A stretch of 32,886 nt of DNA from a virus, in the UHGV virus genome UHGV-1421593, one strand, 5' to 3'. The notes beneath the pieces were generated by a model that saw only the letters and a program-made list of their open reading frames with translations, was not told the DNA's origin and did not search any database. A program made the translations under genes and the position numbers. Shown here one piece after another: positions 7,187 to 24,084 of the stretch (positions within the stretch are counted from its first letter, which is position 1; every line of letters begins with the position of its first letter).

Positions 7187-8956
7187 TCATGGATAGTACA
7201 AATTTTTAAAGTGATTATTAATATCAACCATAGCATCAAGAATTGGTTTGAACAATGAAAAATCTATAGTCTGTCTATTTTCTCTGATAATATTGTTGGC
7301 AAACCTGTCTTTTCCAAAAGTAGTAGTGCTATCATGATTATTACTTTTATCAAAGGATTTACCGTTAATTGTCTTTGTCAGAACTTCATCTTTGAAAAAG
7401 TCTTCCATGCACGATTGTTTATCACCAGCCAATAGTGGAGTTAACAATACGTAGAGGTTATTCTCTAAATGTAAAAATTTATGTTTTCTTACGTCCTCTG
7501 ATTTTCTAGGCAGGTGAGAATATTCTTTGATTATATTATTAATAAAATCAGATGGCCCAGTGTCATTATCCAAAACAATTATTACTGGATTTTTAGGCGG
7601 TTGTCTTTCAAATTTCTTGCATTGTTCTCTATGCCTTCTAAAGAATCTTACATAGTCAGCAGCCCCACCGTAGAGGTCTAAAAAATATTCCTTTTTTGCG
7701 TTTGTTTTGAATAACGTAATATTTAAAATTCTATTCTTTGTTCTATCGTCAACTCTAACCAGAGCAGGATAACTTAAATACAAAGAATCAATTGCACATT
7801 TCAAATAAATTGGATCTGTTTTACCTTCTGTCAAAACTGTAGGCTTTATATTCCCATAAAAATACTTATAATGAAGAAAGTTACTGAATGCTGTCTCTCT
7901 TGAATTCAATTTGAGAGTAAAATTAATTCCAGTTTTCTTTAGCACATATTTTTCTGGGAGTGTATGTTTTTTAGCGTTAATGTTATTATACTTATCAAGC
8001 ATATCAATATAAACGAAGCGGCCTTCAAGTTCATTTAGAGTACCTTTTCGCGGTTTTCCACTAATATCCAAAAGGGTAAAATCCCCTTCTTTATAAAGTG
8101 CATGCGCCATAGCTCTGGTTTTTTTAATATAATCTTTATTGACATTTATTTTTTTGTTTACGGTTAAACCTGTTACTTCCTGCCTTGATGTATGCCGCAA
8201 TATTCTGGTCTTATTATTATTAATTTTAAATCCAGCTTTTTCAATTTCATTAACTAACAATGGTCCTAACTCGTTAGAATTCTCATTTATAACAATTGAG
8301 TCAGGAAACTGATTTTTGTTAGTTGAGAATGTTATATCATCTGCATATCGACTATAACTGCATCCATTAGAAAGTGCCAACTTTGACAATCTAATATCTA
8401 AAATATTACATATAAGATTGCTTATTACAGGAGAGCAAGGACTTCCTTGCGGAAGTTTTCCATCATAGCAAGCTATCTGCGCAATTATAGTTGCTATTGA
8501 TGGGTGCAAATTAAAATATTGATTCGCGATAAAATAACCACGGACCCTACCGAAATTAAATGTAGGGAAAAAATCCTCAAGATCAATATTTAAAACATTG
8601 GTTTTATTTCTATGTCTTTCTGCATTTGTTATTATTGTTTTATTTTTCTCAAATCCATGAGATAAGCTAGGGGTGATATTATTTGTTTTCCATATTTCGC
8701 TCTGACAAACATACAATAAATCTGATAAACGCCTTTGTATGTCTTTTAGTTTTTCAGTAGGCGCAAATATCTCTCTGTCACCTCCAGACTTCTTTTTTAT
8801 AATAAATCTTTCATATTGATGCTCAGGTCGTATTCTGTACAGGACATTAGTAAGAAAAGAAACTTTAATTTGAAGTAAGCGTGCAAACTCAAATTTGGTC
8901 TTGCATGACTTGAGTCTTTCTAAGTAGGAGGGAGTGAACATAATAGTAAATTCCAT
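7187..8956 (-). CDS. Retron-type reverse transcriptase with C-terminal Toprim domain (Retron-Eco2/Ec67-like architecture)
   Basis: RT motifs in order: GGDREIF...IQRRL (1/2), retron-specific NAxxH (TNAERH), LNIDLEDFFPTFN (A), QGSPCSPVISNL (B'), YSRYADDITFS (C, YADD), VTGL (retron VTG). C-terminal ~280 aa has Toprim signatures: TVLTEGKTDPIYL (Glu) and VIIVLDNDTGPSD (DxD). 589 aa. Confidence 0.88.
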   Translation of the reverse strand: MEFTIMFTPSYLERLKSCKTKFEFARLLQIKVSFLTNVLYRIRPEHQYERFIIKKKSGGDREIFAPTEKLKDIQRRLSDLLYVCQSEIWKTNNITPSLSHGFEKNKTIITNAERHRNKTNVLNIDLEDFFPTFNFGRVRGYFIANQYFNLHPSIATIIAQIACYDGKLPQGSPCSPVISNLICNILDIRLSKLALSNGCSYSRYADDITFSTNKNQFPDSIVINENSNELGPLLVNEIEKAGFKINNNKTRILRHTSRQEVTGLTVNKKINVNKDYIKKTRAMAHALYKEGDFTLLDISGKPRKGTLNELEGRFVYIDMLDKYNNINAKKHTLPEKYVLKKTGINFTLKLNSRETAFSNFLHYKYFYGNIKPTVLTEGKTDPIYLKCAIDSLYLSYPALVRVDDRTKNRILNITLFKTNAKKEYFLDLYGGAADYVRFFRRHREQCKKFERQPPKNPVIIVLDNDTGPSDFINNIIKEYSHLPRKSEDVRKHKFLHLENNLYVLLTPLLAGDKQSCMEDFFKDEVLTKTINGKSFDKSNNHDSTTTFGKDRFANNIIRENRQTIDFSLFKPILDAMVDINNHFKNLYYP

Positions 8957-16251: not shown

Positions 16252-18156
16252 ATGCTAAAACTTAAGCGCGATTACACAGTTCAGGGTATTGATTCTGTTG
16301 ATGGTGTTTTTGAAATTGCGTTCAGTTCTGAAACTCCTGTTGAAAGACAGATTCAGGATGAATACGGTCAAAACATTACTGTTAATGAAATTCTCGTTCA
16401 TGACGGCTCACATAACGCTGACTTGACCCGAATTAATAACGGTGCTGCTTTGCTGTTTAACCATGATTTTGATAAACACTTGGGAATCGTTATTCCTGAT
16501 TCTGTTCGAATCGATGAAGACAAAATAGGACGAGCAAAAGTCCAATTCAGTCAACACGGTGAATTAGCTAAAGAAATCGGTGCAAAAGTTCAAGAAGGAA
16601 CAATTAGTAAAATCTCTTTCGGATATGACATTAATGAATATCACTTAGAAGGCGACAATCTTATTGTTACGAAATGGGCACCATATGAAATTTCTTTCGT
16701 CACTGTTCCTGCTGACGATAAAGTCGGTTTGGGAAGACTACTAAATACAGATACAACAAACAAACTTAACAAAGGTACTCGAATGAAACGTATTGATGAA
16801 ATGACTAAAGATGAACTGGCAGAAATGACTATCGATGAAATTGAAATGCTGTCCGATGAAGATCGTGCAAAGCGTGAAGAAATTCTGGAAGAAGTAGTCG
16901 TTGAAAATGAAAACGCTGGTGATTCTGCTGTTGAAAAAACTGATGACGCTCCTGCTGCTGTTCCTGCTGGTGACGAACTGACAGAAGAAGAACGCGAAGA
17001 AGAAGCGGAAGAAATTCTTGAAATCGCACAACGCTACAAAGTAGCACAGAAAGACGTTGCAAGCGCTATCGCTAAAGGCATGACCGCACGTCAATTCAAA
17101 CGCTCTATTAAACCTAATAAATCTGCAACGGTGATTCGCAACATGACTAAAGATACTAAACAAACTCTGGAAAATAAATTCGACCTTGGCGATGCTGTTC
17201 GCTCTATGATGAATGGTAAAGCTGTTCGCGGTGCTGCTGCTGAATATACTCAAGAAATGTCCCGTAAGCGTCTGATGCGCGGTGCTAACGTTTCTCAAGG
17301 TATCTATATGCCAGTTAGTGCTCTGCAAGGCAAACGCGCTATTAACACTGTATCAACTGTTTCCGCAGTACAAGAAACTGTTCAGCGTTATGATTCATTC
17401 GTTGAAATGCTGTTGAAAGACACTGTTGCTGATAAGCTGGGAGTTAACTTCCTGACTGGTCTGACTACTCCGATTTCTGTTCCTAAGCAGACAAAATCAA
17501 GTGTTGATGCATTCGGTTTCGTTGATGAAAACGGTGAATCTCCAGAAGGCGAAAGCAAATTCGAAAACATTCAGTTTATGCCTAAGACATTTACTGGTGG
17601 TAACCCGATTTCTCGTCAAGCTCTGTTGACTCTGCCTAATCTGGGTGCGTTCATTTCTGACCATATCGTGAATTTCTCACGCGCTAAACTGGAAGGTCTG
17701 ATGTTCGGTTCTATTACCGACGCAAAAGCTCCTCAGTCTATCGTTGCTCAGTTAGTAGCAAAACAGATGGGAATGACCTACAAAGAATTCGTTGTTGAAG
17801 CTGCTAAAGCTAAAGGCGACGGCGTAGCAATGGACAAGTTCAAATATTTGATGGCTGCTGCTCTTGAAGGTGATTTGAAAACCACTCTGCGTGACGCTGG
17901 TGTTGCTGGTTATATCATCGACGACCTGAACAAACTGGGCGGACATGATGTTATCGGTTCCGGTCTTGTTAAAGAAGGTCAGGTTATCTCTGGTGACTTC
18001 TCTGCTGTAACCGTAGCTGAGTGGGAAGGTCTTGCTCTTGACCTAGACGACACAACTTACCGTAACAAAGGCGCTATCGTTCCTCGCGTTTGGGCTGATA
18101 TCGATTGGAAAGTTTGTGCTGATGATCGTCTGTTCCTGCACGAAAAAAAAGCCTAA
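16252..18156 (+). CDS. Prohead protease (HK97 S78/U35-type) - acidic scaffold-like linker - major capsid protein fusion
   Basis: N-terminal protease motifs LFNHDFDKHLGIV, ISFGYD, EISFVTVPADDKV. Acidic coiled linker EEEREEEAEEILE. C-terminal ~330 aa capsid-like domain. 634 aa. Confidence 0.78.
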   Translation: MLKLKRDYTVQGIDSVDGVFEIAFSSETPVERQIQDEYGQNITVNEILVHDGSHNADLTRINNGAALLFNHDFDKHLGIVIPDSVRIDEDKIGRAKVQFSQHGELAKEIGAKVQEGTISKISFGYDINEYHLEGDNLIVTKWAPYEISFVTVPADDKVGLGRLLNTDTTNKLNKGTRMKRIDEMTKDELAEMTIDEIEMLSDEDRAKREEILEEVVVENENAGDSAVEKTDDAPAAVPAGDELTEEEREEEAEEILEIAQRYKVAQKDVASAIAKGMTARQFKRSIKPNKSATVIRNMTKDTKQTLENKFDLGDAVRSMMNGKAVRGAAAEYTQEMSRKRLMRGANVSQGIYMPVSALQGKRAINTVSTVSAVQETVQRYDSFVEMLLKDTVADKLGVNFLTGLTTPISVPKQTKSSVDAFGFVDENGESPEGESKFENIQFMPKTFTGGNPISRQALLTLPNLGAFISDHIVNFSRAKLEGLMFGSITDAKAPQSIVAQLVAKQMGMTYKEFVVEAAKAKGDGVAMDKFKYLMAAALEGDLKTTLRDAGVAGYIIDDLNKLGGHDVIGSGLVKEGQVISGDFSAVTVAEWEGLALDLDDTTYRNKGAIVPRVWADIDWKVCADDRLFLHEKKA

Positions 18157-18195
18157 GAAAAGCAAAAGCGAAAGCTGAAACTGCTGAATAATCAG

Positions 18196-18221
18196 AGGAC
18201 TCCTTCGGGAGTCCTTTTTTC
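18196..18221 (+). terminator. Rho-independent terminator (GGACTCC-ttcg-GGAGTCC-TTTTTT)
   Basis: Perfect 7-bp stem with T6 tract after the capsid gene. Confidence 0.7.
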
Positions 18222-18255: not shown

Positions 18256-18552
18256 ATGATTTTTCCATATTCAGAAAAACAAAAACAGTCTTTCTTAACT
18301 CGTTTCGGACAGAAAATCAAAATTAACGATTCTGATGAACTCGGTATTGTTGAAATTGAGATTAACAACGATAACGGACAAGTAAGCGAGACAATCTATA
18401 TAACCGCTGATATCAATAAAGTTAAGCAAGAAGATGAAGTTCTATTAAACGAGATTCTGTATACCATTGCGTATCTTGTTAATGATGGTTCAGGACTTGC
18501 TAATTGCTATCTGGCATTTAAAGGCGAACAGGAGACATCATTCTATGACTAA
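18256..18552 (+). CDS. Hypothetical head or head-tail connector protein
   Basis: 98 aa ORF with GGAG Shine-Dalgarno, located between capsid and tail genes. Confidence 0.45.
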   Translation: MIFPYSEKQKQSFLTRFGQKIKINDSDELGIVEIEINNDNGQVSETIYITADINKVKQEDEVLLNEILYTIAYLVNDGSGLANCYLAFKGEQETSFYD

Positions 18553-18943
18553 TCTGCCACGTTTAGGAATTAAACGCGCTCTGGAAGAAATAATCGTTAA
18601 AGAACTTAATCTGAAATACGTCAAAAACGCTTTCACAACTGGTGTTAAAGAACCTGTTCAAGTAATGATTCCAGGAATGACAGAAGAATATACGCGAATC
18701 GGTTTGCAATCGAAACTTGCAAGTGTTCTTAGTATCACGATTGATATTTTCTCAGAGAAAAGCGAAACCGGCGTTCACAAAGCCGTTTACGACTTAATTT
18801 CTATTAATGCTAATCATGAAAAACTTATCCCATTTAAAATCGATAAGATTTATCCAAGTTCAAGTTTCACTGATTATGATAGTGAAGCATCAAATGGTCA
18901 TGTTAGCGCACAAATAATTTTAACTTTCGAATACTTAATGTGA
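18545..18943 (+). CDS. Hypothetical head-tail joining protein
   Basis: Start at ATG 18545 (MTNLPRLG) overlapping the previous stop (ATGACTAA), replacing the track's 18467 start. 132 aa. Confidence 0.45.
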   Translation: MTNLPRLGIKRALEEIIVKELNLKYVKNAFTTGVKEPVQVMIPGMTEEYTRIGLQSKLASVLSITIDIFSEKSETGVHKAVYDLISINANHEKLIPFKIDKIYPSSSFTDYDSEASNGHVSAQIILTFEYLM

Positions 18944-18950
18944 GACTAAA

Positions 18951-19976
18951 ATGACAAACGATATTTTTGTAGGAAATAACGTCAGAGTTTCAGTTAATCC
19001 GCTAATCGTTGAAATCCCAGGATATAACGACCCAGGTTATGTAAGCACTGATAAACTGGCTGCATTCCCTGTTATCGGATTTAGAAAAGAAGTTCAGACA
19101 CTAGAAGATTACAGAACCGATTTTACAACGAAACTTTCAGGTGACGTAACAATTAATGACACTTCAATAAGCTTATTTGAAGACAGTTCTGACCCAGTTT
19201 ATCAGTTGCTTGATGAAGCTCTTATGGAAAAGAAACTCCTTAGATTCAGAAGTCTTTATGTTATCGATGGAGAAACAAAGAAAGATAATGATGCTGGTCT
19301 TTATCATATTTTTAATGCTTATGTAACTAAGAAAGAAACAACAGGCTCCGAAAACTCAGTCGTTACAACAACTTTTAATCTTTCTCCTGATGGTCAGTTG
19401 TTTACAGGTTTTGCTGAATTCTCGGTTCCGTTAAACGTTGGCGATTATGGTATTGGTGCTGGTACAGAAGAAATCGCAGGTGTTAAAGACTTAGGATTAT
19501 TAACTGGTAACAGATGTGTAACAGTCGATGCAACAAACAGCGATAACCCTTATAACTCTGGCACGTCTGCTATGGCTATTCAGCATCCTGATGGTCAAGG
19601 TTGGGAGCTTATTGGTTCGTCAGTCGGTAATCCAAGCATCAGAATCAGAAACAAACAACAAAGCGGTGAAACTGTTACTGAATCTCCGTGGGTCAAAGTC
19701 TATACAGAACTTGAACGTCCAACTCCTGAAGATATTAATGCTTTGCCTATTACTGGTGGAGAACTCAAAGGATCTTTGACTATTCAGGAATATCTGAACG
19801 TTCGTAAAAAGATTTCTGCGCCACAAGGTGAAATCTTGGCTCTAAATAGTAATGAAATTAACTCAACTTCTGTCAAGGTCAAAGGCAAAGAAGTCTATTC
19901 TCCAAGTAATAAACCAACGCCATTAGAGATTAATTGTGTAGCGTTAGGAGAAACCTTAGACGCAGGAGTATTTTAA
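18951..19976 (+). CDS. Tail tube (major tail protein-like) paralogue with ~180-aa C-terminal extension
   Basis: N-terminal ~160 aa aligns with the 23134-23610 product (DIFVGNNVRVSVN...EIPGY...AFPVIGFRKEVQT versus DIFAGSYVSVFYN...EIPETGAFPSTGIEREVIT; KLSG/KLVG; YVIDGETKK/YWIDATKK). Confidence 0.5.
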   Translation: MTNDIFVGNNVRVSVNPLIVEIPGYNDPGYVSTDKLAAFPVIGFRKEVQTLEDYRTDFTTKLSGDVTINDTSISLFEDSSDPVYQLLDEALMEKKLLRFRSLYVIDGETKKDNDAGLYHIFNAYVTKKETTGSENSVVTTTFNLSPDGQLFTGFAEFSVPLNVGDYGIGAGTEEIAGVKDLGLLTGNRCVTVDATNSDNPYNSGTSAMAIQHPDGQGWELIGSSVGNPSIRIRNKQQSGETVTESPWVKVYTELERPTPEDINALPITGGELKGSLTIQEYLNVRKKISAPQGEILALNSNEINSTSVKVKGKEVYSPSNKPTPLEINCVALGETLDAGVF

Positions 19977-19988
19977 CGGATAAAGAAA

Positions 19989-22900
19989 ATGGCAAATAAT
20001 AAAGTTAAACATTATAGAACAGACGTCGCCGGAAGAAAGCCAGAAGCGAAAAACATGCTTGATGGTGAAATCGCTATTAACTTAGCCGATAAAAAGATTT
20101 TCACTAAATTCGGTGACGCTGTTATTAACATCGGTAATGGTGCTGACGCTGTTGTTGAAGGCGGTCAGACCTTTACTGGTAAAATTAAAGCAAGTGATAT
20201 TGAATCCGATTCTAATCTGACTTTAAAAAATCTTGATAAAAGCGATATTGTTTTTGCTGATGAACACGACAAAGCAAAAGCGCGTATTAGTTCTCCTGCT
20301 CAAGCAGACGCTAAAGGTGAACTTCGTGTTACGGTAGCGAAAGGAAAAGCTACAGGAGAGAGTTCTGACTTTGTGCTTAACGGTAATGGTCAGTTATCTT
20401 TACCTGCTGCTCCTGTTGCTCCTGAAAGCGCTACGCGTAAAGATTACGTTGATTCTGAAATCAGTAAAGTCCAAACAGGCTCAAGTGCTGACCTGACGAA
20501 ACTCGAACAGAAAGTTGATGCTAACGACGCTGCTATTAACACTCGCGTTGATAATCTGAATTCAAAAGTTGATCAGAACGACGCTGCTATTAATACGAAA
20601 GTTGATGCGAATAAAGCTGATGCTGACGAAAAGATTAAAGCTGTTAACGACCGTCTGACTGTTGATAATCAGACTCTGACTAATATGATTAACGAAAAAG
20701 TTAGTAAGTCTGGTGATACTATGACAGGCAATTTGACAGTTCCTTCTGTTCATGCTGCTGGTGATGTATACGCTGGAACTTTGAAAGTTACATCTGCTGG
20801 TAATAACGGTGGTGTTCTGAGTATTGAAAACCACGGCAGAACTTCAAAGACTATTCATCAAATTGCATACGCAACGGATACGGATGATCGACTGTTATTT
20901 CGTCGTGATGCTAACGAAGGAACCGACGCATTAGATCTAATGACCATGGCTTGGGGAAAGACAGGCAGAGGAATGTCAATTGATATTTCAGGTCAAGCTA
21001 GAATCACTGATACAGTAACAACTCCTTTAATGTCCGTTGCAAGCAACTTTGCCGTTGGAAATTCACTGGGTTTAAACTCTATCGCTATTGGTGATTCCGA
21101 CACTGGTTTTAAATGGAGACAAGACGGTTGGTTAAACTTCTATTCTAATAACGTTGTAACAGCTTCTATCGCAGGATCTGAAAACTACTTTAATAGAAAA
21201 ACTTATTTCCGTTTCAGAAGTGATGATGGCGATTCGAATCTGTTGGCTCCTGAAGGTCAGGCATTAATTCAAATCGATACGACAACAGATGGGAATAACG
21301 TTGGTGATTCCACGACTTATTTCGGATTAGTTAATGGTGGAAAATACAATCATTATCTGAGAGGTAAAGGCAGAACGTATATTGATACTCATGAAGGTCT
21401 CGGCGTTGCTGGTCCTGCAAGTTTCTATCAGACGATTTTTAACAACAAAGGATACGGAAGTTACGATAGTGAATCATTGCCAACTTGGACAGATGCTGCG
21501 TATCAATCGAATCATTTAAGAAAAGTAAGAGCTAAAAACGGCGGAGCAATTTTTCATGAAGCTGTTGTTGCCGAACACGGTGATTCTAGAGCTAGTCAGT
21601 CTATAAGCTGGTATCACGGTAATGGTCCTGAAAACTTCATCGCATCGATGCAGATTGACGGAACAATTAACGCAACTCGTTTTAATACGTCTGCTGAATA
21701 TGAAGCGATTAACATCAAAACGAAAAATCGCGAAGCTGCTTATATTAGAGGCACAGACGGTGACAAAACTTCATGGTTATTTGGTCGTTTGAATCCCGGT
21801 GATAACAGGTTAATTGCTCGTTCTACTATCGACCAAGACGGAAGTTCTACTGTTGACTTGGAGATGGATTCAGGAAGCAAATACTTCGGTGTTAATGTTG
21901 GTGGGAATAGAATTGCAAGATTTCATGAAAAAAATATTATTATCGACGGAAGAAAGTGGGCTGCTGACAATAGTCACGCTTGGGCAGACCAATGGAATCA
22001 ACTTCCTCCTGTTGCTATAGAATTTGGTGCTGTTCCTTCTGGAAGTGATTATTATCCTGGATATGCATTACAAAGTAGCTCTGTTGGTTTTGGTTATTCA
22101 ACTCGATTCGAACTCGGTATGATTCGTGCTCCTGCTGATCAATTCGGTAGAGGTATTCTTCGTGTGGGAACATATGAAGAAGGTGCGTCGAAAACGATGG
22201 CGAATTACGAGTTCAGTATTGACGGAAGATTCGCAGTTCCTGGCAAAATTAATACTCCTTATCTAGAAACTTCTAGAATTACAAGTTTTGCTGTAGGTAA
22301 TACGAATAACGGTCTAGGCGGTAATTCAATTGCCTTCGGTGATCACGATACTGGTATTCGTCAGCAGGTTGACGGTATTCTTGAATTTCATGCTAATGGA
22401 TTTCATTCGATGTCTATCGATTCTGCTCAAGTTTGGTTAAACAGACATTTGAATATTTCTGCTCCTAACCACGGTCGTGGTGTTTATGTCAACGGTAATC
22501 GAGAAGGTGCCAGCAATTCGATGATTCAAGGTCAAGTCGAAGGATGGGCTGATTGGGGTTCATGGCGTGAACGTCCTGCGGGAATGATTGTTGAAGCTTC
22601 TGCTCGTTCGAAATGCATTAATATCTGGAAACATGTTCACTGGGGCACAGAATATAGTGCTGCAATGGACGTTTATAATCCCGACGGTGCAGGTCCTGAA
22701 GCCCAATTACACGTTGGTGGTGCAAACTATCATTTCAGCGGTAACGGAACAGCAAACGCCATTTCTTGGGTTAGCACTTCTGATAAACGTCTGAAATCAA
22801 ATTTTGAAGAAATTGAAAACGCGGTTGATAAAGTCGAGAAACTTACTGGTTACGTATACGATAAGAAATCTGATTTAGTCGAAACTGAATATTCATTCGA

Positions 22901-23072
22901 AGTTCGTGAAGCAGGTATTATTGCTCAAGAACTGAAAGAAGTATTACCAGAAGCTGTTAGTTCTTTCGGACCTGACGAAATTCTTGGTGTTAACTCTGCT
23001 GCTGTAAACGCGTTGCTGGTTAATGCTATCAAGGAATTAAGTGCTCGCGTTAAAGAACTTGAAGCTAAATAA
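19989..23072 (+). CDS. Long tail fibre with C-terminal intramolecular chaperone (peptidase S74) domain
   Basis: 1027 aa. Conserved fibre N-terminus, tandem 18-aa repeats (KVDANDAAINTRVD / KVDQNDAAINTKVD), C-terminal autocleavage motif SDKRLKSNFEEIENAVDKVEKLTGYVYDKK. Confidence 0.85.
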   Translation: MANNKVKHYRTDVAGRKPEAKNMLDGEIAINLADKKIFTKFGDAVINIGNGADAVVEGGQTFTGKIKASDIESDSNLTLKNLDKSDIVFADEHDKAKARISSPAQADAKGELRVTVAKGKATGESSDFVLNGNGQLSLPAAPVAPESATRKDYVDSEISKVQTGSSADLTKLEQKVDANDAAINTRVDNLNSKVDQNDAAINTKVDANKADADEKIKAVNDRLTVDNQTLTNMINEKVSKSGDTMTGNLTVPSVHAAGDVYAGTLKVTSAGNNGGVLSIENHGRTSKTIHQIAYATDTDDRLLFRRDANEGTDALDLMTMAWGKTGRGMSIDISGQARITDTVTTPLMSVASNFAVGNSLGLNSIAIGDSDTGFKWRQDGWLNFYSNNVVTASIAGSENYFNRKTYFRFRSDDGDSNLLAPEGQALIQIDTTTDGNNVGDSTTYFGLVNGGKYNHYLRGKGRTYIDTHEGLGVAGPASFYQTIFNNKGYGSYDSESLPTWTDAAYQSNHLRKVRAKNGGAIFHEAVVAEHGDSRASQSISWYHGNGPENFIASMQIDGTINATRFNTSAEYEAINIKTKNREAAYIRGTDGDKTSWLFGRLNPGDNRLIARSTIDQDGSSTVDLEMDSGSKYFGVNVGGNRIARFHEKNIIIDGRKWAADNSHAWADQWNQLPPVAIEFGAVPSGSDYYPGYALQSSSVGFGYSTRFELGMIRAPADQFGRGILRVGTYEEGASKTMANYEFSIDGRFAVPGKINTPYLETSRITSFAVGNTNNGLGGNSIAFGDHDTGIRQQVDGILEFHANGFHSMSIDSAQVWLNRHLNISAPNHGRGVYVNGNREGASNSMIQGQVEGWADWGSWRERPAGMIVEASARSKCINIWKHVHWGTEYSAAMDVYNPDGAGPEAQLHVGGANYHFSGNGTANAISWVSTSDKRLKSNFEEIENAVDKVEKLTGYVYDKKSDLVETEYSFEVREAGIIAQELKEVLPEAVSSFGPDEILGVNSAAVNALLVNAIKELSARVKELEAK
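20511..20615 (+). repeat. Tandem ~54-nt direct repeat inside the tail fibre gene
   Basis: GTTGATNNNAACGACGCTGCTATTAA at 20514-20540 and 20568-20594. Confidence 0.6.
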
Positions 23073-23077
23073 CAAAA

Positions 23078-23093
23078 AGGGGAGAAATCCCCT
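23078..23093 (+). terminator. Candidate terminator hairpin (AGGGGA-gaaa-TCCCCT)
   Basis: Perfect 6-bp stem after the fibre gene; short T-tract only. Confidence 0.4.
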
Positions 23094-23133
23094 TTGCTAA
23101 ATAAACTATATTAACTCAAATAGGAAATTAAAA

Positions 23134-23610
23134 ATGGCAGACAAATTTGATATTTTTGCTGGCTCTTACGTCAGTGTGTTCTATAACTCAGAAATTGCAA
23201 ACACCGATCTGAATTCAGAAAAGTTTGTTGAAATTCCTGAAACTGGTGCATTCCCTTCTACGGGTATTGAACGCGAAGTTATTACAGCTCCTAACTTCTC
23301 TCACAAATACTCCCGTAAACTGGTTGGTCGTGGCTCTGTTCCTGATATCGACTTGACCGTTAACTATATTCCAGAAAGCGTTCATGATGTTCTGATTAAG
23401 CTTGCGGAAGATGGTAAACGTGGTCAGTTTAAAATCGTTTATTGGATTGATGCTACTAAAAAACTGGGTGTTGCAAAAGTTTATAACGGCTTCTTGTCAA
23501 GCGCTGTTCATAATGGCGGTGAATCAGAAGTTCAAGGTCTGACAATGACACTGAGTGTTGATGGTGGTCCTGTTGTTTCTGGTGTTGTTGATTTGACATC
23601 AAGTGATTAA
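23134..23610 (+). CDS. Major tail (tube) protein, lambda gpV N-domain-like
   Basis: 158 aa. Pattern matches the lambda V tube domain (GAGTTLWVYKG...KVKDLTPGEL... versus AGSYVSVFYN...FVEIPETGAF...). Followed by a strong terminator. Confidence 0.6.
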   Translation: MADKFDIFAGSYVSVFYNSEIANTDLNSEKFVEIPETGAFPSTGIEREVITAPNFSHKYSRKLVGRGSVPDIDLTVNYIPESVHDVLIKLAEDGKRGQFKIVYWIDATKKLGVAKVYNGFLSSAVHNGGESEVQGLTMTLSVDGGPVVSGVVDLTSSD

Positions 23611-23617
23611 TTAAAAA

Positions 23618-23640
23618 GACTCCGCAAGGGGTCTTTTTTT
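23618..23640 (+). terminator. Rho-independent terminator (GACTCC-gcaa-GGGGTC-TTTTTTT)
   Basis: 6-bp stem (one G-U pair) with T7 tract. Confidence 0.65.
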
Positions 23641-23667: not shown

Positions 23668-24084
23668 ATGTTTAAATTTCAGGCTGACTTATCAAAATTA
23701 CTTAATCGCTATATCAATCAGCAACACGTTTTCGGTCAAAACGACTGTAATATCCTTGTTGCTGAATATATCGACCTTGTTTGTGCTACTGAATACACAG
23801 ACAAATTAAAAGACAAATACACGAGTATTCCTGAAGGACTGAAGATCTGTAAAGACCTAACAGGATTTAATAACGTTCTCGAAGCGTGTGAAACGCATCT
23901 TGAGAAATCAGAAACTATAGAAACAGGCTCGGTTATCTTAATTAAGAAAAAGCATAAAAACCGAATCTATTACGTTGCGTCTATCGTTTTTAATAATAGA
24001 GCATTAGTTGAACATGAAAATAAATATCAACTGATAAACGTCAACGATTTTAATTTTGAATTAATTTTTAACAGGAGAAAATAA
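23668..24084 (+). CDS. Putative tail tip protein with NlpC/P60-like Cys-His signature (gpK-like)
   Basis: 138 aa immediately upstream of the gpJ-like gene. GQNDCNILVAEY (candidate Cys) and ...KKKHKNRIYYVASIV...LVEHEN (candidate His residues). Weak call. Confidence 0.3.
   Translation: MFKFQADLSKLLNRYINQQHVFGQNDCNILVAEYIDLVCATEYTDKLKDKYTSIPEGLKICKDLTGFNNVLEACETHLEKSETIETGSVILIKKKHKNRIYYVASIVFNNRALVEHENKYQLINVNDFNFELIFNRRK

Follow-up and report, generated by a model that had tools for sequence, protein, structure and literature searches.

A tail-tube paralogue as the probable anchor of a side tail fibre in a family of lambda-like prophages

Why should a siphophage-type tail module contain two genes for tail-tube-like proteins, placed on either side of a long tail fibre gene? 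This question is raised by the UHGV virus genome UHGV-1421593, a stretch of 32,886 nucleotides (nt) that was analyzed in full and is referred to as the window. According to family scans of its open reading frames (ORFs), the window is a lambda-like, siphophage-type prophage of enterobacterial origin. The ORF list of its plus strand places a product of 341 amino acids (aa), the long paralogue, at 18951-19976, a fibre ORF of 1027 aa at 19989-23072, and a product of 158 aa, the short paralogue, at 23134-23610. An earlier reading of the letters alone (the sequence-only reading) had described the same two ORFs with the 3.1-kb fibre ORF between them, and this arrangement was borne out. In our analysis, the short paralogue is the major tail tube protein, and the long paralogue is an anciently duplicated copy that has been turned into the anchor of a side tail fibre, a reading that we hold to be probable and by no means certain.

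As judged from their sequences, the similarity of the two paralogues is far beyond chance. BLASTP aligned residues 4-148 of the long protein with residues 6-144 of the short one (145 residues) at an E-value of 2e-11, with 28% identity and 48% positives, and the alignment included the motifs DIF.G, AFP..G...EV.T, KLSG/KLVG, Y.ID..TKK, and FNLSPDG/MTLSVDG. Both proteins matched PHROG 158 'major tail protein', the short one at an E-value of 5e-16 and the long one at 9e-5, and a hidden Markov model (HMM) of the short family matched the long protein of a copy in Escherichia coli with approximately 96% DNA identity (locus L002) at 3e-15. The paralogy over the first ~160 aa, as claimed from the letters, therefore holds, with all quoted motifs present in the alignment, and the C-terminal extension of the long protein is real and comprises about 185 residues. 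The label 'two tail-tube proteins' was correct in that both are tube-fold paralogues; it did not stand in so far as it treats them as equivalents, as only the short one appears to be the major tube protein. The additional suggestion of a tube protein next to a specialized, extended paralogue agrees well with our results, with the short protein as the ordinary tube protein and the long one as the specialized copy.

Several lines of evidence point to the 158-aa protein as the major tail tube protein, namely its typical size, the tube domains of its distant relatives, its codon usage, the hairpins flanking its gene, and its place in the gene order. The short family is uniformly 150-175 aa in length. 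The Pfam family Phage_TTP_12 (PF16461) scored 15.1 bits on the short copy itself, under the cut-off of 26.1, and distant family members carry PF16461 or PF16460 and are named 'phage tail tube protein'. With a fraction of optimal codons (Fop) of 0.62 and 0% rare codons, the short gene is second in the window to the capsid gene (0.70), whereas the long gene is less well adapted (Fop 0.48, 6.2% rare codons). The gene is flanked on the plus strand by a hairpin at 23076-23095, between the fibre gene and the short gene (RNA fold of -12.4 kcal/mol, z -4.5, with 0 of 200 shuffles as stable), and by an intrinsic-terminator-like hairpin with a U-run directly after it at 23613-23640 (-13.9 kcal/mol, z -3.9). 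With regards to gene order, the canonical slot directly before the G, T, and tape-measure genes is held by the short copy in the loci L004, L005, and L006, in the Escherichia phage DCP80, and in the loci from IMG/VR, and the long copy was never found in the slot before the chaperones and the tape measure. In the window and in the Kluyvera locus L003, the block of chaperone and tape-measure genes lies downstream of the J-like gene. As is characteristic of its family, the short protein would be predicted to form stacked hexameric rings around the tape measure protein.

The long paralogue begins with the same fold and continues into something else. Its residues 1-155 (18951-19415, plus strand) form a tail-tube-fold domain with the beta-sandwich, flanking helix, and long hairpin of that fold. 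They are followed by a glycine-rich linker and a small beta domain (residues 156-262, 19416-19736), the most conserved part of the family, and by a short fibre shaft (residues 263-341, 19737-19976) with Y..NKPTP..I.A motifs and a conserved C-terminal ..LDAGVF. This layout was derived from an alignment of 17 long homologues of 341-698 aa, which shows four parts: the tube-like domain, the linker and beta domain (approximately residues 160-260), a shaft that varies in length and sequence, and a C-terminal (I/L)D.G.F motif. Approximately 20 positions of the linker and beta domain are invariant, including the columns G164, G167, G169, G171, G177, D180, G186, N187, R188 and, further on, W247, K249, and Y251. 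The linker proper, GDYGIGAGTEEIAGVKDLGLLTGNRC (residues 164-189, nt 19440-19517), contains, immediately behind the tube domain, the stretch G[DES][YF]G[VI]G[AS].G, which is the most conserved of the family and is kept even in relatives that are only ~25% identical elsewhere. AlphaFold2 (AF2) predicts this motif as disordered, with a predicted local distance difference test (pLDDT) score of about 30.

The sequence-only reading had considered an Ig-like fold for the C-terminal extension, and here the outcome was different. No Ig or FN3 match was obtained in the Pfam scan or with Foldseek against the PDB; in place of such a fold, we found the glycine-rich linker, then the small beta domain, and finally a segment of fibre shaft with matches to tail-fibre families. 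The PHROG tail-fibre matches fall within residues 219-335 with E-values down to 2.5e-6, and weak ones among them include the T4 gp36-type hinge connector (phrog_1425, E 0.0075) and the gp34 family. PF03903, the T4 gp36 domain, was found in the C-terminal parts of two homologues (P0019 and P0026), and the long protein of the window itself had no Pfam match, including none to the gp36 domain. In tblastn, the C-terminal part of the long protein matched fibre genes of unrelated phages. The AF2 monomer of the long protein reached a moderate mean pLDDT of 63 and was poor in the linker and the C-terminal part. For residues 150-341 alone, the model was likewise poor (pLDDT 55), and a Foldseek search with it against the PDB returned nothing under an E-value of 0.09, with T4 gp34 and the fibre of R2 pyocin resembled only faintly. 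When the PDB was searched by sequence and by profile, neither the two paralogues nor the family profile gave a significant match.

The C-terminal motif of the long protein is kept in all relatives in which the fibre is a separate protein, and we propose the C-terminus of the shaft as the joint to the 1027-aa fibre. This fibre (19989-23072, plus strand) is a distal subunit of the T4 gp37 family, matching phrog_1699 'long tail fiber distal subunit' at an E-value of 3e-112. Its C-terminus holds an intramolecular chaperone (Peptidase_S74) at about 22779-22958, where PF13884 scored 54.6 bits against a cut-off of 22. The N-terminal ~55 aa of the fibre (19989-20153) are conserved across four loci whose fibres otherwise differ, and a conserved N-terminus with swapped bodies is what an attachment segment would be expected to show. 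In the best interpretation, the long paralogue and this fibre act together as a single unit, namely a fibre whose anchor has the tube fold, with the major tube protein encoded next.

Relatives of the window add to this picture. A profile of the long paralogue was compared with 1.84 billion representative proteins and gave 504 matches. Among the best 150 of these 504, there were dozens of proteins of 600-1500 aa whose first 200-350 residues match the tube domain, the linker, and the beta domain; remote proteins of 700-1400 aa match the profile from position 4 to 207-355. The N-termini of these large remote proteins match PHROG 158 and their remainder matches tail-fibre PHROGs. A scan of IMG/VR provided 76 loci. 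In 71 loci (IMG/VR plus earlier loci), a single long copy stood next to a single short one, where a long protein was counted if it had at least 400 aa and a tube domain at its N-terminus, and the short gene usually starts 50-70 nt past the end of the long gene. Most loci encode the long protein as one fused chain of 700-1350 aa. The fibre gene, which the sequence-only reading described as separating the two tube genes, is also no unrelated neighbour that lies there by chance: in most relatives, a single polypeptide comprises the tube domain together with the complete fibre, and its gene is located directly upstream of the short tube gene. The true two-gene form, with an anchor and a separate fibre, was found only in the enterobacterial clade that includes the window; apparent split forms in L059-L064 and L067 turned out to be frameshifted pseudogenes and not genuine two-gene versions. 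Where the sequence suffices, the common structural module reads TerS, TerL, W, portal, protease-capsid, two small genes, long paralogue, short paralogue, (G), T, tape measure, Dit, gpL, gpK, and J. Overall, the device is the norm in a large family of prophage-like elements of ~25-36 kb from Enterobacterales and metagenomes.

Among deposited phages, DCP80 is the only one with a near or remote long protein, and a search of BFVD returned ordinary tube proteins only. The DCP80 record (PQ671644.1, locus L001) has 141 kb and is classed as a T4-like Gaprivervirus, and its first ~26 kb (1-26300) are a complete copy of the lambda-like structural module. The record has the appearance of a chimera, assembled from a T4-like phage and from an induced element of the window's family; if so, elements of this family do get packaged.

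How old is the duplication, and is the long copy still under selection? In a neighbour-joining tree built from 72 pairs, one from the window and one from each of the 71 loci, the tube domains of the long and the short proteins are reciprocally monophyletic, and the duplication is therefore old. Within one locus, the long and short domains share 17-32% identity. The long tube domain diverges faster, with a mean pairwise identity of 37% compared to 53% for the short one, and the two co-diverge (r 0.79). The positions that only the short copy conserves are concentrated in the long hairpin (residues 44-72), and in the long copy they are relaxed, which is expected if the long copy does not polymerize on itself. 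Compared with a diverged E. coli copy, the ratio of nonsynonymous to synonymous substitution rates (dN/dS) of the long gene is 0.16, with 0.12-0.17 across all three parts and 0.15 in the linker and beta part. Together with the conservation throughout the family, this value rules out that the long copy is a pseudogene or a decaying duplicate. The long gene is old, maintained by purifying selection, and specialized. In a mirror-tree comparison, the distances of the long tube domain track those of the tail module (Dit, the distal tail protein, r 0.85; gpL 0.84; T 0.83) above those of the head module (0.53-0.61).

How could such a protein be built into the tail? In our proposal, the tube-fold domains of the long protein would form a ring that is stacked in the tail axis, with one or a few rings per tail. 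For a tape measure of 799 aa, we would expect about 30 rings and thus roughly 180 copies of the short protein, compared with 6, 12, or 18 copies of the long one. The glycine-rich linker and the beta domain would run outward from this ring and gather the chains, and the short C-terminal shaft would meet the conserved N-terminus of the gp37-like fibre, as in the T4 gp36-gp37 joint; the fused relatives would combine anchor and fibre in a single chain. The ring would sit at the tail's distal end, with the distal tail protein on one side and the first major tube protein ring on the other, a position that is favoured because of the analogy to p140 of phage T5 and, weakly, because of the co-divergence with Dit. 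A hexameric ring could carry two fibres, which are presumed to be trimeric, and the linker would be a candidate, speculatively, for the change in symmetry. That the fibre polypeptide or its proximal adaptor is itself a tail-tube ring, with the linker turning the six-fold ring into trimeric fibres as a further attachment mode for non-contractile tails, is put forward more tentatively than the anchor role as such, and we would place it a little short of an even chance.

Some observations weigh against this proposal. The long gene lies beside a putative terminator gene and upstream of the tube gene, where a position at the neck would suit equally well. The mirror-tree signal is common to the whole tail module and lacks the power to discriminate between ring positions. 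The poor AF2 model of the linker and the C-terminal part leaves the step from six-fold to three-fold symmetry without structural support, and several copies have decayed, with an IS3 element in TerL of the E. coli MS 115-1 copy and a fibre gene that is apparently disrupted in EN-1077. The first of these observations leads to the reading that we consider unlikely, yet the least so among the alternatives, in which the long paralogue would be the last head-proximal tube ring under the terminator and the fibres would leave the neck instead of the tail tip. In every locus, the long gene is preceded by the two small genes that resemble connectors or terminators and is followed by the gene of the major tube protein, which is the slot predicted for a component between terminator and tube. 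However, the terminator identity of the upstream 132-aa protein is only putative, the location of the long gene would be accounted for just as well if the tube gene had duplicated in tandem, and the T5 precedent is a distal ring. In addition, the distances of the long tube domain are slightly closer to those of Dit (r 0.85) than to those of the adjacent 132-aa gene (r 0.69), which is a weak test.

The full tube fold of the long copy, including an insertion of hairpin length, would also allow it to co-polymerize with the short protein along the whole tube at a low ratio, like gp17.1* with gp17.1 in SPP1, so that fibres would emerge along the shaft. Its place in the same operon and the lower codon adaptation of the long gene fit such a minority subunit. 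Nevertheless, known mixed tubes share an identical N-terminal sequence, whereas the long domain has just 17-32% identity to the major subunit after an old, reciprocally monophyletic split and has lost the hairpin positions that are conserved in the major subunit. Moreover, the fibres of up to ~1200 aa that are fused to it in relatives would be hard to pack in successive rings. Because of this divergence and the size of the fused fibres, co-polymerization along the whole tube is improbable, more so than a ring at the neck. The relaxed hairpin could instead speak for a tube-like domain that forms no axial ring and attaches, as a monomer or trimer, to the outer face of the distal tail protein or of the tube, like the Ig or OB domains of other side fibres. 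All four attachment modes of side fibres listed by a structural paper (PMC13455828) use peripheral domains, which is in line with such an adaptor; we nonetheless rate it as very improbable, the least likely of all readings. An axial ring of the long paralogue that anchors the side fibre at the distal end remains our preferred reading.

For comparison with known systems, p140 of T5 is the closest documented analogue of the long paralogue. This duplicate of the tube protein makes up one ring, placed after the last ring of the tube and before the distal tail protein, and bears the fibre collar (PMC10038345). The long paralogue likewise arose by duplication of a tube gene, as indicated by the BLASTP match and the tree. 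However, p140 is a double-domain trimer without sequence similarity to the long paralogue, which has a single tube domain, and its gene is located among baseplate genes and not directly upstream of the tube gene. In T5, p140 is also undecorated and holds a separate Ig-fold collar protein, p132, which in turn holds the fibre (the L-shaped fibres of pb1), whereas the extension of the long paralogue is covalent and its tube domain is continuous with the fibre base or, in most relatives, with the entire fibre. The Ig-like domain of lambda gpV, gp17.1* of SPP1, and the frameshift extensions of lactococcal phages similarly combine a tube fold with a C-terminal addition that faces outward and presumably makes contact with the cell surface. 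Their extensions are small Ig or FN3 domains on the major subunit or a frameshift variant of it and decorate the whole tube, while the long paralogue, compared with the gp17.1* type, is encoded by a separate gene 3.1 kb upstream instead of by recoding, is only 28% identical, and carries a fibre base.

The tube-initiator paralogues T4 gp54 and gp48, Pvc5 of PVC, and Afp5 are parts of contractile machines, where they serve to initiate the sheath or tube, and no fibre is attached to them. On the fibre side, the arrangement resembles T4 gp36-gp37 in that a small proximal protein precedes a large distal one, the downstream fibre is gp37-like, and some long homologues contain PF03903. The difference is found at the proximal end, since the long fibre of T4 is connected via gp34 and gp35 to gp9 of the baseplate and not via a tube-fold domain.

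For siphophage-type tails, four ways of fixing side fibres have been listed (PMC13455828, 2026): the distal tail protein may be decorated and carry them, it may be encircled by a ring of Ig domains (Ur-lambda), a collar may surround a tube-like ring (T5), or they may be fixed to the central fibre shaft (F-pyocin). A fibre whose own N-terminal domain forms a ring of the tube would lie outside these four and would represent a fifth. Full-text searches of the literature yielded no description of a fusion of tube domain and fibre, nor of the tail of this element. The components are already known, namely tube paralogues in specialized rings, decorated tube proteins, and fibres of the gp36/gp37 type, and it is their combination, a fibre anchored by its own tube-fold domain across a large family, that these searches did not find described. 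If true, this would be a compact and genetically portable cassette of an anchor plus an exchangeable fibre. The enterobacterial clade keeps the anchor and the first ~55 fibre residues while the fibre bodies swap, which is useful for the engineering of host range. Furthermore, hundreds of proteins now annotated as 'hypothetical', 'tail fiber domain-containing', or 'major tail protein' (PHROG 158) belong to the fused type, which corrects their annotation.

The remaining genes of the window complete the setting. Besides a serine integrase, they include both terminase subunits (small and large), a W-like protein, a portal of the lambda type, a protease-capsid fusion, and two small conserved genes. 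The long paralogue, the fibre, and the short paralogue are accompanied by a DUF6950 protein, a J-like tip protein, an endonuclease VII, chaperone-like genes, and the tape measure; the genes of the distal tail protein (Dit, 3191-3892) and a DUF2163 (gpL-like) protein are located near the left end on the minus strand. In E. coli MS 115-1 and six further complete genomes of this species, the insertion site of the element lies between ybiT and ldtB, and close homologues were found in Citrobacter, Enterobacter, Klebsiella, and Kluyvera. An IS3 element is also present in the copy of strain L3Cip3, and an intact copy is carried by E. coli 2021CK-01361. The guanine-plus-cytosine content of the window is ~38%, far under that of enterobacterial hosts, and no replication module was obvious in the gene scans of the window.

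At 16252-18156, the prohead protease (Peptidase_S78) and the major capsid protein form a single ORF of 634 aa, and this fusion is kept at about 580-660 aa in all related loci. The terminator scan indicated a terminator-like hairpin after it at 18194-18217 on the plus strand (RNA fold of -16.5 kcal/mol, z -2.0). The surrounding segment 18179-18225 is 92% identical over 47 nt to the T4-like phages YUEEL01, TOPO13, and 215Ecol030PP, where the matching stretch is annotated at small outer capsid or capsid genes; this likeness is probably due to a shared terminator motif.

Two small plus-strand genes always lie between the capsid gene and the long paralogue. The product of the first (18256-18552, 98 aa), which has the same position in the loci examined, matched the chain 'stopper protein gp12' faintly (E 0.23) and is probably a candidate head-tail connector. 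The second (18545-18943, 132 aa) is directly upstream of the long paralogue in a conserved position. Its product gave no significant Pfam, PHROG, or PDB match, one of 19 family members faintly matches PF11367, and from its position it is possibly a tail terminator or completion protein. A stopper and a terminator were sought in these genes to fix the meaning of the gene order, and the matches were faint and non-significant; neither ORF beside the fibre module matched an Ig fold or another Pfam or PHROG family.

The tail module of the window (1-4300 and 23668-32772) is rearranged with respect to relatives. In L004, L005, L006, DCP80, and the IMG/VR loci, the tube gene is followed by G, T, tape measure, Dit, gpL, gpK, and J, whereas in the window and the Kluyvera locus L003 it is followed by gpK, J, a 94-aa gene, endonuclease VII, a 180-aa gene, a 105-aa gene, G, T, and tape measure. 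In the window, the tape measure gene is found at the right prophage end, and Dit and gpL are inverted at the left end by the serine integrase. A search for inverted repeats flanking the rearranged module gave chance-level matches only. The endonuclease VII/HNH-type gene (28100-28576) lies amid the tail genes between the J-like gene and the 180-aa 'minor tail protein', and occupies the same place in DCP80 and the Kluyvera locus.

Finally, the minus strand carries defence-type cargo at 4925-5821 and 7187-8956, a TIR-domain protein and a reverse transcriptase/endonuclease of the retron Ec67 family, with names taken from the PGAP annotation of the E. coli MS 115-1 copy. Retron Ec67 was first mapped to a foreign element of ~34 kb near 19 min on the E. 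coli map, which would fit the insertion between ybiT and ldtB.

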